A stretch of DNA of 64,000 bases from Chiloscyllium plagiosum (taxonomy: Eukaryota). The position numbers were made by a program, and so were the translations under genes. Positions 1 through 61,070 of the stretch are shown here, piece by piece. Position 1 is the stretch's first letter; every line of letters begins with the position of its first letter. The notes under the pieces were generated by a model. It ran no database searches, was not told where the DNA came from, and saw only the letters and a list, made by a program, of their open reading frames with translations. Where the stretch lies: NCBI RefSeq assembly GCF_004010195.1, contig NC_057718.1:103047566-103111565 (forward strand), in the 5' to 3' direction.

Positions 1-1149
1 TCAAGTCCATTACAACTTCTTTGGAAGTTCTGAAGAAATCATACTAGACTCAAAACGTTAACTCTGTTTCTCTCTCCAAAGATGTTGCTGAGCTCCTCCA
101 AGTTCCTCTGCGTTTCTATTAGATTTCCAGCACCCCTTTATTACGGGAACGTTTTCTCCCTATCTCCTGAGCAGACCTCTCATGATTCTGAGGATGATCT
201 CGATCACATCAGATCTTCGATCAGATCTCGTCTCCAAAGAGAACAGTCCTAGCTTCCACCTTTGTATCTGAAATTCCTCAGTGCTGAAAGCCTTGTGACA
301 GAAACAATCAGGTGCAAAACCCAGTGATGTGAAACAACGATTAAAAATGAGTGGCTTTGGAAACTAAGATGGCCAATCCTCCTCTGCAGCAGTGGGGAGC
401 TTTGTTTGCGCTGTGTAACTCGGGAATAGGAAAGTGGGTCATCTTGCTCAGCAAGGCAATCATGCCCTCCAGAGAAAGGCAATATGGGAGCTATTTCCAC
501 AATTACCAGATCAGAGGCCTGGTACCAATAAATGCGATTTAGTAGGAAATCACGTGAAGAAAAGACAGCAATCACAATTAATTTAAAAGGACAAATGATC
601 AAATCCCTGCAATATGCTACAATATGGTTAAAAATGATAAATACCAGCATGAAACGCTATGCATTATGAAACAGATAATGATTTTCATGGAGGGTGCATG
701 GTATATAGCTGGATTCTGTTCTGATCAATTGCAGCATGTCCAAATTTAATCAGTATAACGGAATGATTATTATCTCAGTGCATATTCACTACGTGCTGCT
801 GTACCCTTGAACTCAGCAGAGCAGAATTAATATTAAATAACAATTACACAGTAAGTTACGAAATGTTACAACACAAATAGCGTAAATACTTAGCTATATT
901 GCCTGCTTTCTGAGTTCCTAAAGTCACACATATTTCCAAATTTGTCTGTGTGAAAGAAAATCTGAAAAGTGCTTCGATTGTTTGGCGATTCTTAGTGAAT
1001 GGCGTTTCAAGGCGAATAAGACACCTCCTAATTGTTGCTTTCACTTGTTTCCTAAATCACCACAGTTTACAGTAGACCTCATTTTATCTCAGCTTTAGCC
1101 TAAGTTTAGCTTTGCAGAACAAACATAGAGACTGCATCTTGATTCACTC

Positions 1150-1670
1150 ACAGACGTTTACATCACAGAAAGAAGGTGATTTGGCCCTTTGTGCTCATGC
1201 CTGCCAACTACAATCTAGTTCTCCAGTTCTCGGCCCAAGGCCCTGGAGGTAATGCAGCTCAGTATCTACATAATGCTTCAGTGTTACAGGAGAGTCTGAT
1301 TCAACCATCCTTTCAGGCAGTGAGTGCCAGATTTCCATCTCCCAGTTAGTGAAAGTAATTCATTTTAGCTCTCCTCTTCACCTTCTGTGTCTTACGTTAT
1401 ACTGATCCCTTCCTGTCCAGCCCATCTATGTCCCTCAAAACCTTATACACCTCTGTCAAGTCCCCTCTCAACCTTCACTGCTCCAAGGAAAAAAAATCCC
1501 AGTCTATCCAATCTTTCCTCATAGTTCAGAACCACCAGCCCAGGCAGGATCCTGGTAAATCTCCTCTGTACTCTCTCTTGAGTACAATCACATCCTTCCT
1601 ATAATATAGTGATCAGGACAGCACACAATATTTTAGTTGTGGTCGAACTGGTGTTTCACAATTCCAACGA
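1150..1670 (-). mobile_element. Old CR1-type LINE 3' fragment
   Basis: Degenerate similarity to the CR1 ORF2 C-terminus and 3' UTR of other copies. Confidence 0.6.
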
Positions 1671-1802
1671 CCTACACATCTACATCAGATCATGGAGCAA
1701 AATCACAATATGAAGCAAGGTATATTTATTAATCTAATTTGATAGAATGTTAAAAAACAAGGAACATGAGCATCAGCGGAGTTTATGAAGGGCTTATCAT
1801 AA

Positions 1803-3455
1803 AGTCATAGAGATGTACAGCATGGAAACAGACCCTTCAGTCCAACCCATCCATGCCGACCAGATATCCCAACTCAATCTAGTCCCACCTGCCAGCACCC
1901 GGCTCATATCCCTCCAAACCCTTCCTATTCATATACCCATCCAAATGCCTGTTACATGTTGCAATTGTAACAGCCTCCACCACTTCCTCTGGCAACTCAT
2001 TCCATACACACACCACCCTCTGTGTGAAAACGTTGCCCCTTAGGTCTCTTTTATATCTTTCCCTCTCACCCTAAACCTATAGTTCTGGCTCCCCCACCCC
2101 AGGGAAAAGACTTTGCCTATTTATCCTATCCATGCTCCTCATAATTTTGTAAACCTCTGTAACGTCACCTCTGTAACGTCACCTCTCAGCCTCCGACGCT
2201 CCAGGAAAAACAGCCCCAGCCTGTTCAGTCTCTCCCTGTAGCTCAGATCCTCCAACCCTGGCAACAACCTTGTAAATCTTTTCTGAACCCTTTCAAGTTT
2301 CACAACATCTTTCCGATAGGAAGGAGACCAGAATTGCACACAATATTCCAACAGTGGCCTAACCAATGTCCACAACATGACCTCCCAACTCCTGTACTCA
2401 GTACTCTGACCAATAAAGGAAAGCATACCAAACGCCTTCTTCACTATCCTATCTACCTGCAACTCCACTTTCAAGGAGCTATGATTCTGCACTCCATTGT
2501 CTCTTTGTTCAGTAACACTCCCTAGGACCTTACCATTAAGTGTATAAGTCCTGCTAAGATTTGCTTTCCCAAAATGCAGCACCACGCATTTATCTGAATT
2601 AAACTCCATCTGCCACTTCTCAGCCCATTGGCCCATCTGGTCCAGATCCTGTTGTAATCTGAGGTAACCCTCTTCGCTGTCCACTACACCTCAAATTTTG
2701 GTGTCATTTGCAAACTTATTAATTGTACCTCTTATGCTCGCACCCAAATCATTTATGTAAATGACAAAAAGTAGAGGACCCAGCACCGATCCTTGTGGCA
2801 CTCCACTGGTCACAGGCCTCTAGTCTGAAAACAACCCTCCTCCACCACCCTCTGTCTTCTACCTTTGAGCCAGTTCTCTATCCAAATGGCTAGTTCTCCC
2901 TGTATTCCATGAGATCTAACCTTGCTAATCAGTCTCCCATGGGGAAACTTATCAAACGCCTTACTGAAATCCATATAGATCACATCTACTGCTCTGCCCT
3001 CATCAATCCTCTTTGTTACTTCTTCAAAAAACTCCAAGTTTGTGAGACATGATTTCCCACGCACAAAGCCATGTTGACTATCCCGAATCAGTCCTTGCCT
3101 TTCCAAGTACATGTACATCCTGTCCCTCAGGATTCCCTCCAACAACTTGCCCACCACCGAGGTCAGGCTCACCGGTCTATAGTTCCCTGGCTTGTCTTTA
3201 CTGCCCTTCTTAAACAGTGGCACCACATTTGCCAACCTCCTGTCTTCCGGTACCTCACCTGTGACTATCGATGATACAAATATCTCAGCAAGAGACCCAG
3301 CAATCTCTAGTTTCCCACAGAGTTCTCGGGTACACCTGATCAGGTCCTGGCGATTTATCCACTTTTAACCGTTTCAAGACATCCAGCACTTCCTCCTCTG
3401 TAATCTGGAGTTTTTGCAAGATGTCACCATCTATTTCCCTACAGTCTATATTTTC
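1803..3455 (-). mobile_element. CR1-clade LINE (HER1-like), 5'-truncated, frameshifted ORF2 RT region plus 3' UTR
   Basis: ORFs with KSPGPD, PGNYRPVSLTSVVGKLLE, DFSKAFDK, WQMEFNSDKC, RPLLEYCVQFWSP, LERRRLRGD; CTATGACT-type tail. Confidence 0.95.
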
Positions 3456-59170: not shown

Positions 59171-59610
59171 ATAGTCATAGAGCTGTACCGCACGGAAACA
59201 GACCTTTCAGTCCAACTCATTCATGCAGACCAGATATCCTAAATTAATTGAGTCCCATTTACCAGAATTTGGCCCATATCCCTCTAAATCCTTCCTATCA
59301 TATACCCAGACAGATGCCTTTTAAATGTTGCAATTGTACCAGTCTCCAGCCCTTCCTCTGGCAGCTCATTCCATACACGCGCCATCCTCTGCGTGAAAAG
59401 TTGCCCGTTAGGTCCCTTTTAAATCTTTCCCCTCTCACTCTAAACCTGTTCCCTCTAGTTCTGGACTTCCCCATCCTTGGGGAAAAGACCTTGTCTATTC
59501 ACCCTATCCATGCCCCTCATGATTTTATAAACCTCTATAAGGTCACCCCTCAGCCTCTGATGCTCCAGGGAAAACAACCCCAGCCTACCCAGCCTCTCCC
59601 TATATAGCCA
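59171..59610 (-). mobile_element. CR1 3' fragment
   Basis: Similar to 1803-2240. Confidence 0.9.
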
Positions 59611-60734
59611 TGCCTTGGAATGTTTTTGTTATGTTGAAGCTTTTGTCCAACATTAAGTTGTACATAAGCCCCTCCAGATCTGAAGGTTAGAAACTGTAGA
59701 AAACTATTGATTAAGCAGAATATTGCACAGAATTTGGATAGTTGATTCTGCAGTGGTTGTGTTGTTTTAATGCAACATTTTGCAAAGTAAACAGCTTGTG
59801 ATTGCATTCTCTGGTTTTATTTCTATTTTCTAGTTCAATGACAGAAGCTGTTAGCCAATCCCAGCACTAGATGGTGCCCCTTTCTTTCCCTAAGAAAGTG
59901 ATACAGTTCCCAGTTGAAGAGTTTACAGATAAGGGTCTGCCAAAATTCAAATCTTTATTGGATCTGCAGATATTCTCCACAATGCCACAGATTACATACT
60001 TGCGCTCATGTCGTTTGGTGATGCTGCTGCAGAAGCCTTTCTGTTCTCTTCCCCACATGGCAGTGTCTGAGACTGACAAATCCCGTGCCTTTTCATTGGC
60101 GGCTCCTGCTGAATCCTTCAATAACAGTAGTTGTCTTTTTGCAGGCAGTGGAAGAAACAGCAAAACAAAAGGTCAGCTATGACTCTATGACTCTATGTCA
60201 GCAAGTTGTGTTACACTAGTGAAGGCCTTCAACATCCCATAATATTTCCCTCCTGCATTATAAATCATTTAGGGGTAGAATAAAGGGGGGGAGGTGGGGG
60301 GTGGAATCTCATTGACAGTGACCGGAATTTTGATAAACTCAAAAAGGAGTCCCAAGGGTTCTTGTGGCAGATTGGTAGTGCCCCTGCCTCTGAGTCAGGA
60401 GGCCACCTGGTCCAGAGGTGTGTCATAACATCTCTGAGTGGGTTAAGAGGGGTTCCAGATCTAACTGTGACATGAACAGCTTTGTCTAGAATATAAACCA
60501 ATCCTCAAATCTGCATGGGAGACAGGGCATTAAACTGAACGGACACTGTGGGGAATACAATTCGATACTTCAGAGATGCATTCATTATGTTTACTGAAAT
60601 AGTTAGCTGTTGGGCTGTGAGTTTGATTTGGACTGTGAGCACGTAGCTGGATGTAGGGAACGATAACTGACAGTTTGCTACATAAACAGGCAAGGCGAGG
60701 GACAAAGGAGGTTAACAACATTAGCAGTTCCAAG

Positions 60735-61070
60735 TTAAATATCACATAACACCAGGTTATAGTCCAACAGGTTTAATTGGAAGCACTAGCTTTCGGAGCG
60801 CTGCTCCTTCATCTGTTGGTGTTGAGTACCGAGGCTGTTACCGCGATGCCGTCATTGTGGTGGATGCTGGTGTAGAGTGCTGACATGTCCATTGTGATGA
60901 GGAATGTTCCGGTTTGATTGGTCCGTGGGTCCTGAGTTTCTGTAAGAAATCCAATGAAGGAGCAGTGCTCTGAAAGCTGGTGCTTCCAATTAAACCTGTT
61001 GGACTATAACCTGGTGTTGTGTGATTTTTAACTTTGTTCACCCCAGTCCAACACCGGCGTCTCCACATCG
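60735..61070. mobile_element. Penelope-like insert: two inverted terminal-repeat arms enclosing an RT fragment
   Basis: Spacer at about 60818-60952 reads on the minus strand DFLQKLRTHGPIKP/TFLITMDMSALYTSIHHNDGIA, a PLE-type RT motif; TTAGCA(G/A)TTCCA at both flanks. Confidence 0.85.

Follow-up and report, generated by a model that had tools for sequence, protein, structure and literature searches.

How a stretch of shark genome came to hold so many short repeats with minimal hammerhead ribozyme (min-HHR) motifs, and whether these motifs still act on RNA, are the questions raised by this locus of Chiloscyllium plagiosum. Hammerhead-like repeat sequences are indeed present at the coordinates cited in a sequence-only reading of the window (the whole 64,000 nucleotides analysed), and the minimal-hammerhead descriptor search proposed there returned more one-mismatch matches than shuffled sequence. 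Without stem I, the descriptor gave two matches at zero mismatches (0.0 in 30 dinucleotide shuffles), seven at one mismatch (0.6, maximum 3) and nine at two mismatches with four stem II pairs (1.1, maximum 5), one of the nine (36854, minus strand) lying outside every family. A stricter descriptor, requiring 3 bp of stem I, gave 0, 1 and 2 matches at 0, 1 and 2 mismatches, against shuffle values of 0, 0.05 and 0.45. Single-copy folding was mostly no better than shuffles (z below −2 in one of eight). Viral contigs yielded no match in either of two pattern scans, and the 14 loci from a metagenome pattern scan were all chance, with no family sequence beyond the pattern.

Twenty-five repeat arms, each with part of a minimal type I hammerhead, were tabulated (the automatic register being arbitrary in the three partial arms 26403+, 8990− and 30015+), which bears out an estimate of more than 15 copies in 64 kb. 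The core, (C/U)UGAN(G/A)A ... GAAA ... UH, is present at the family level, for family B by combining different copies, but in only four of the 25 individual arms, so that most copies do carry core mutations, as had been claimed. Core and palindrome are kept together in three arms, and core, palindrome and full stem II in one, 24347+ of family A.

Four sequence-distinct families had been proposed. Families A, B and D are, however, homologous, with ~100 nt of 3' sequence in common and profiles that cross-match at E 5e-4 to 7e-11, and there are therefore two lineages (A/B/D and C), not four. A PLE (Penelope-like element) origin is supported, and so is the identity of the motifs as min-HHRs, which have the sequence features described by Cervera and De la Pena in 2014. 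The unpaired base between positions 9 and 10.1 is A in all copies that keep the 5' core, and G10.1–C11.1 closes stem II in the best copies of each family. The palindromic stem III region is AGCU in all seven family C arms with a valid register; among the A/B/D palindromes (n = 16, one partial arm excluded), five are ACGT, seven are the CpG-decay forms ACAT/ATGT and four are other, the decay of copies lying mostly at CpG. For stem I, the founding description of PLE min-HHRs gives 4–5 bp; here D (33044−) has 5 bp, B (30+) 4 bp and C 3 bp, and A has two contiguous pairs. Stem I is weak in A and C.

Covariation between families is clear. The first stem I pair is C-G (A, C) or U-A (B, D), stem II is GGGC/GCCC, GAGUC/GACUC, GGGUC/GACUC or GGAGC/GCUCC, the stem III palindrome is ACGU or AGCU, and core pair 3–8 is either C-G or U-A, with U3-A8 replacing C3-G8. 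Within family C, covariation falls short of significance, the observed values being reached in 48 to 167 of 500 shuffles, although the two compensatory changes reported for 29906–29942 are real, U17 and GUA also occurring in the partner arm. Reads restore the core at the family level: position 12 of the family D copy is G in all 42 RNA reads and in 84% of the DNA contig depth, and family A loose-end reads carry CCGAAACGTC. A likeness of ordinary repeats to a short motif by chance alone would fit with Rfam, which has no hammerhead among 16 matches up to E=5, with the loosest descriptor setting, where 17 matches barely exceed chance (7.4 in shuffles, maximum 14), and with the failure of the core in most copies. 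It has next to no likelihood in our view, because the same layout recurs in two unrelated lineages, with two-sided changes that include U3-A8, and stands beside PLE coding remnants.

The family A loci, which include the best-preserved hammerhead, are as follows (units with arms on both strands are marked as having no single strand).

3460–3558, plus strand: 3' part, beginning at about the cleavage site; no hammerhead core
24237–24485, no single strand: head-to-head unit with a 14-bp target duplication (24237–24250 and 24472–24485); arms join at a GGAATTCC palindrome; minus arm with G8A and broken palindrome
24343–24472, plus strand: plus arm of that unit, with tail; sole arm whose hammerhead keeps core, palindrome and stem II intact (position 3 at 24347)
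26300–26528, no single strand: head-to-head unit whose junction holds a short additional inverted piece; hammerhead of the minus arm at 26389 (A15.1G); plus arm begins in stem II and bears the tail
38418–38541, plus strand: copy cut off in the core; family RNA reads have an intact CCGAAACGTC 3' core
50274–50407, plus strand: single copy with intact core and palindrome (50280) and 3/4 stem II pairs
55341–55441, no single strand: tail-only arm and short arm, head-to-head, 13-bp target duplication; no hammerhead

Family D is represented by two loci.

5968–6120, no single strand: tail-only plus arm and a minus arm, head-to-head; target duplication of 13 bp, one mismatch; minus arm with U3-A8, position 3 at 6074, core intact, palindrome broken
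32939–33061, minus strand: single insert in a LINE, 103 nt (32949–33051), 10-bp target duplication; stems I and II 5 bp each; G5A, G12A

For family B, the proposed layout has no intact copy in the window, and both copies cited for it are degraded: that at 25–64 keeps one of five stem II pairs and has G12A, and that at 8967 has lost position 3 and has the palindrome ACGG.

22–135, plus strand: copy with 5' core intact, G12A, stem II lost
8901–9102, no single strand: head-to-head unit, plus-arm hammerhead at 8971, tail on plus arm
18299–18440, minus strand: copy inside ETAA1 intron 4, on the sense strand of the gene; broken palindrome and G12A
21609–21677, minus strand: degenerate remnant in ETAA1 intron 3
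34802–34930, plus strand: copy cut off in stem II
43672–43806, plus strand: copy cut off in stem II
52106–52276, no single strand: degenerate head-to-head unit, both arms without tail
55718–55856, no single strand: head-to-head unit, tail on plus arm
14600–31932, minus strand: host gene ETAA1, six coding exons

The ETAA1 coding exons lie near 31932–31765, 22941–22798, 22160–22078, 21093–20989, 18120–15790 and 14716–14600. An 811-aa ORF beside a family B copy was considered as a PLE ORF and rejected, since it is ETAA1 exon 5.

Family C differs in having coding sequence nearby.

28705–28749, minus strand: family C tail only, inverted relative to the endonuclease remnant
28744–29290, plus strand: PLE linker, zinc-finger-like motif and GIY-YIG remnant, with stop codon and frameshift
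29817–30091, no single strand: head-to-head unit; minus arm with tail, hammerhead at 29938 (UAC/GUA, GGAAC/GUUCC, G5A, G12A); plus arm begins in stem II
35628–36341, plus strand: copy with long upstream part, split by a 374-nt SINE (35834–36207); hammerhead at 36255 (G12A)
53574–53961, plus strand: copy with ~310 nt of upstream sequence; intact core and palindrome (53886), 3/5 stem II pairs, broken stem I
54379–54594, no single strand: head-to-head unit with an 11-bp target duplication, one mismatch; both arms begin in the core, and the minus arm bears the tail
60721–61085, no single strand: plus arm with tail (60953–61073), RT fragment, minus arm (60818–60732); 12-bp target duplication, one mismatch

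A physical link of family C to PLE remnants had been claimed, and fragments of both the reverse transcriptase (RT) and GIY-YIG do adjoin family C; the GIY-YIG remnant, however, touches only a 45-nt inverted family C tail without a hammerhead. The RT fragment (~60949–60821, minus strand) lies between two family C arms within one target duplication, and its ~43 codons have 64% identity to the full-length PLE protein P0021. The family C copy placed at 60784–60818 lacks the CAC strand, being cut at the core and fused to this RT sequence. The GIY-YIG remnant has 76–80% identity to Chiloscyllium punctatum protein P0003; Pfam recognises neither the remnant nor P0003/P0004, and the assignment is by homology to RT-bearing proteins. 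These two are the only PLE coding remnants in the window, both touching family C at rearranged junctions; no complete element is present in the window. A CX2-5CxxC linker before a C-terminal GIY-YIG, found for family C only, is intact in P0003 and P0017 and degenerate in the window. The remnants are probably Neptune-type, the choice between Neptune and Nematis resting on the linker and the host group. When viral and prokaryote contigs were scanned with P0003 as the protein guide, no locus was confirmed.

All families share head-to-head arms, a 30–45 nt tail on one arm and 10–14 bp target duplications, which is PLE anatomy; both this anatomy and internal initiation have been published (PMC3846280; Craig 2021, PMC8557442; PMC11167929). 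Target duplications of at least 11 nt (at most one mismatch) bound 6 of 21 units against 4 of 200 random controls, and 10 of 11 two-part units, judged by eye, have the tail on one arm only. There are two preferred 3' ends, 30–45 nt apart, and the 5' ends of 22 of the 25 arms lie within or just before the ribozyme. The repeats are probably dead 5'-truncated pLTR copies of two PLE lineages. Reverse transcription of uncleaved RNA would start ~55–110 nt downstream of the predicted cut site, and its stop at or inside the ribozyme would yield the 5'-truncated inserts. By analogy with the anole PLE, the two 3' ends may be two internal initiation sites, and head-to-head pairs could arise from two cDNAs primed at one break or from fold-back. 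The templates would not have been cut by the ribozyme, because the inserts span the cut site; those of family C would likewise not have been processed at the poly(A) site, because both 3' ends lie beyond it. In the source elements the ribozyme presumably worked, either as a dimer or aided by protein, and the genomic copies would be passengers, nearly all inactive.

The upstream flanks of A, B and D have nothing in common except the inverted arms themselves, and these families could therefore be dedicated short non-autonomous elements, with RNA beginning ~7 nt before the core and mobilised in trans by a PLE protein. None of 17 A/B/D arms matches a relative farther than 7 nt upstream of position 3, and the family D insert at 32949–33051, which is bounded by a target duplication and whose empty site is seen in reads of other LINE copies, begins exactly 7 nt before position 3 (33044). 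In addition, the window, metagenome loci and a translated-repeat protein search yielded no ORF linked to A, B or D; in that search, translated A/B repeat ends retrieved 13 proteins, none a PLE ORF. We nevertheless consider such elements unlikely: many arms begin inside stem II or later, as truncation predicts, and five of eight family C arms also begin in the core or stem II, despite the ~310-nt upstream copies and the RT link of that family. Neither ARAGORN (0 genes) nor Rfam (no tRNA match) detects a tRNA-like head in the window, although a degenerate one could escape detection, and run-off from the 5' end of a full-length element would yield the same pattern.

Non-LTR retrozymes, tandem hammerhead arrays that spread through circular RNA, share the motif class and have been described in one cartilaginous fish, where they were traced to pLTRs (bioRxiv 10.64898/2026.07.22.740005). 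They are very unlikely here, as none of 20 tandem-repeat rows in the window overlaps a hammerhead and the pairs are head-to-head, not head-to-tail. Motifs in head-to-head pairs lie on opposite strands, so that a cleaving dimer cannot form, and the pairs in the window fold into long hairpins and are thus not dimer substrates. In cofolding of three copies, the stem III dimer was not the lowest-energy form.

AATAAA or ATTAAA follows the predicted cut site by 10 nt in all eight family C arms, and 541 family C RNA reads, which come from one run of which ~2% was read and may derive from few loci, end in poly(A) 13–15 nt after this signal, ~30 nt after the predicted cut site. In the copy at 35628–36341, AATAAA is at 36293–36298, and family reads continue for 13 nt before poly(A). 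Reads in the poly(A) bin are 3:1 ribozyme sense if the first mate is antisense. No pile-up of read starts or ends at the cut site was seen in the runs examined, which had low power. None of the listed sequence entries that contain the stretch is recorded as RNA, which weighs in neither direction. These data would suit dispersed copies that act as ribozymes, or as ribozyme-gated 3'-end modules, in the regulation of host RNAs. This is quite improbable, given that core, palindrome and stem II are kept in only one of the 25 arms, that none of the five arms sense to ETAA1 introns has an intact core and that the hairpins formed by pairs bury the motif. Furthermore, published min-HHRs cut weakly and not as monomers, and eight of nine frog dimers did not cut. 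A splice-acceptor role for the B and D repeats, at their pyrimidine tract and AG, was considered but not adopted.

A doubtful but more specific proposal makes the pLTR of family C a compound module for 3'-end formation, with a hammerhead cut site 10 nt before a working poly(A) signal. Its very many dispersed copies would supply shark transcripts with poly(A) sites, and those still intact would clip the tail when a PLE protein or partner RNA activates the ribozyme; in the element, the switch would divide transcripts between translation and circularisation, and the folded ribozyme would stop reverse transcription, mass-producing 100–135 nt inserts. If the poly(A) coupling holds genome-wide, family C relics would be a large source of shark transcript ends. 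In the literature searched, we found neither a poly(A) signal with poly(A) reads beside the cut site nor arm starts at the ribozyme. With 25 arms in 64 kb, the dense shark case is natural test material for what PLE hammerheads do, and offers four sequence variants including U3-A8, insert ends piled on the ribozyme and a used family C poly(A) site.

Hammerhead-bearing PLE repeats are already known as a class, described in 2014. The min-HHRs of Cervera and De la Pena (PMC4209133) have the same core, unpaired 9/10.1 base, G10.1–C11.1 pair and palindromic stem III, and likewise occur as many consensus families, mostly as single truncated copies, with pairs on opposite strands. The U3-A8 variant is also found there, for Schistosoma Cercyon elements, whereas stem II is shorter here (4–5 bp) than the 7–8 bp of Schistosoma. 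The results and one supplement file of that paper do not name sharks, the host here, and these parts make no mention of a poly(A) signal next to the motif, as in family C. Non-LTR retrozymes also place a type I hammerhead in vertebrate pLTR-related repeats, but are defined by head-to-tail arrays, which are absent from this window. Neptune/Nematis-type PLEs (Craig et al. 2021, PMC8557442) likewise have a C-terminal GIY-YIG preceded by the CX2-5CxxC linker and inverted 5'-truncated copies with a one-sided tail, but this window holds only fragments of such an element. In the Poseidon element PAc of Anolis carolinensis (Frangieh et al. 2024, PMC11167929), the ORF begins at stem II. As in the reading preferred here, the tail of PAc is defined by two internal initiation sites with the hammerhead upstream of them, uncleaved RNA is the main substrate, and both DNA strands are cut and extended. 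The family C remnants, by contrast, appear to be Neptune-type.

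Eight of eight family C arms carry a polyadenylation hexamer, AATAAA in five and ATTAAA in three, that starts 10 nt past the predicted hammerhead cut site, although arms that share a unit are not independent observations and the hexamer occurs often in the window (197 matches). In X21, a poly(A) single-cell RNA run, 541 reads clipped at 36299 run on for 13 nt beyond the hexamer before a poly(A) stretch starts (agreement 0.85). These reads come from a single run, sampled at ~2% and aligned at 80% likeness, so the loci behind them could be few or many. They may even stem from a single A-tailed genomic copy. 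In contrast to the X21 reads, contigs from the sequencing dataset X9 carry a templated, GT-rich continuation without an A run at the same point. The two 3′ ends that family C has in the genome are both past the poly(A) site, a placement that would fit copying begun within the RNA rather than at a polyadenylated end. No description of a poly(A) signal beside a PLE hammerhead was found among the open-access Penelope papers listed for polyadenylation, or by term searches of PMC2377424 and PMC8557442.

A second point of interest is the start of the inserts. In 22 of 25 arms the start falls between ~7 nt upstream of position 3 and the 3′ side of stem II, and three family C copies extend ~85 to 310 nt upstream. 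In several pairs the arm starts nearly coincide despite a tail-sized difference in length, which indicates that position, not length, fixes the insert end. As inserts run across the predicted cut site, their templates were probably uncleaved or religated. Eleven units are two-part and head-to-head, with the 30–45 nt tail on one side only in 10 of them, as read by eye from profile matches. Flanking direct repeats of at least 11 nt (one mismatch allowed) accompany 6 of 21 units versus 4 of 200 random pairs. Head-to-head arms, a one-sided tail and target duplication are the published PLE signature in the accessible parts of PMC3846280 and Craig 2021. The family D insert at 32949–33051 lies within a LINE, and the empty site is seen in reads of other LINE copies; this nesting, like that of a SINE (35834–36207) inside a family C copy, gives relative ages.

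Head-to-head units hold two motifs on opposite strands, and their read-through RNA is predicted to fold into a long hairpin in four of four units, which argues that they are not dimer substrates. No read-end pile-ups were seen in reads over the window, a comparison of low power. As far as the sections available report, published minimal hammerheads cut weakly and none as monomers (Cervera and De la Pena 2014), and one of nine frog dimers cut (2026 preprint).

The sequences cited in the sequence-only reading are present in the window (GC 41%, two N gaps). A descriptor built from the core, the extra A, stem II and the palindrome matched perfectly twice versus 0.0 times in shuffles (n=30), seven times versus 0.6 with one mismatch, and 17 times versus 7.4 at the loosest setting; an Rfam search of the window did not find the hammerhead. 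Profile searches recovered 25 arms in which part of the motif is present (six A, nine B, two D and eight C), in line with the more than 15 copies anticipated. Most copies are indeed mutated in the core, which is kept in only four arms; three keep core and palindrome, and 24347+ alone has the full stem II as well. Decay is mostly at CpG, with ACAT or ATGT in 7 of 16 A/B/D palindromes. Reads taken across each family show a restored core: for family D, all 42 of 42 RNA reads have G at G12, as does 84% of the DNA depth; for family A, 547 loose ends give CCGAAACGTC (agreement 0.73). The loose-end consensus of family B is poor (agreement ~0.5), and its core was therefore assembled from separate copies.

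The four distinct families originally proposed reduce to two lineages. Families A, B and D have in common ~100 nt 3′ of the motif, including a predicted 7-bp stem closing with the tail (weak energy; two-sided change at one pair), and family C has no similarity to them. Two-sided pair changes between families affect stem I, stem II, the core pair 3–8 (U-A in D) and the palindrome. Within family C, both compensatory changes in 29938- proved genuine, with U17 and GUA found in its partner arm too; as a count, however, covariation falls short of significance (the observed values are reached in 48 to 167 of 500 shuffles).

The window contains only two PLE coding remnants, both oriented so that the hammerhead lies on the ORF sense strand:

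PLE RT fragment, 64% to residues 420–450 of P0021 (a full-length PLE protein), between two family C arms within one target duplication
PLE linker and GIY-YIG fragment, 76–80% to P0003 (a Chiloscyllium punctatum protein), joined to an inverted family C tail

The suggested physical link of family C to PLE remnants is borne out for the RT piece; the GIY-YIG piece touches only the inverted tail, which has no hammerhead. The nearest named relatives of the endonuclease remnant are from C. punctatum (76–88%) and other sharks, which points to a shark host, probably of the carpet sharks. No ORF tied to family A, B or D turned up among the window's PLE remnants, in a metagenome pattern scan or in a protein search with translated A/B repeat ends. 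Four annotated shark host proteins (P0002, P0009, P0015 and P0035) contain an in-frame piece of this PLE endonuclease, which suggests exonisation or annotation error. A head-to-head pair resembling family B seems to have been read through to give P0119, a protein predicted in a different organism.

Just before the ATG-like position, ~20 nt past the predicted cut site, 8 of 10 B/D arms have a pyrimidine tract and AG, against one of six A arms:

34846–34857, plus strand, pyrimidine tract and AG
6010–6030, minus strand, pyrimidine tract and AG
32985–33000, minus strand, pyrimidine tract and AG
other B/D copies, pyrimidine tract and AG

This is possibly a splice acceptor. Among 13 predicted proteins, P0113 and P0123 run from host sequence straight into the MLPDLL that the repeat encodes; no read joints at the tract and AG were among those listed, and the same bases are also predicted to pair with the tail.

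Several repeats lie close to or within a host gene:

14600–31932, minus strand, ETAA1, complete six-exon coding structure with canonical splice sites, exons placed from homologues

Its 811-aa frame (15748–18183) matches Pfam ETAA1 (E=2e-41), and its first exon, near 31765–31932, is GC-rich. None of five sense-lying arms in ETAA1 introns has an intact core and the intact copy is antisense, numbers too small for a test of bias. A family C poly(A) hexamer at 29895–29900 (minus strand) lies in intron 1, sense to the gene and ~1.9 kb past exon 1, and could cause intronic polyadenylation of ETAA1.

Elsewhere, a perfect 208-bp inverted repeat without spacer (56667–57082), immediately before an N gap, is probably an assembly fold-back and accounts for spurious Rfam microRNA matches. 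A tandem array of 114–156 nt units with telomere-type hexamer runs occupies 39025–39520, and 130 nt are tandemly duplicated at 50500–50758 (99% identity).

The phrase 'hammerhead ribozyme' occurred in none of the listed matches, as indexed, to the shark and hammerhead literature. The window repeats are a real feature belonging to an already described class: the available text of Cervera and De la Pena 2014 covers the motif class together with its families, the pairs on opposite strands and the U3-A8 form, and that of the 2026 preprint ties vertebrate retrozymes to pLTRs (PLE terminal repeats), with one cartilaginous fish sampled. What is noteworthy is the coupling to a poly(A) site and where the inserts have their 5′ boundary, rather than the motif itself. 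In the uncleaved or religated templates deduced for them, the window's inserts resemble the anole element of Frangieh et al.
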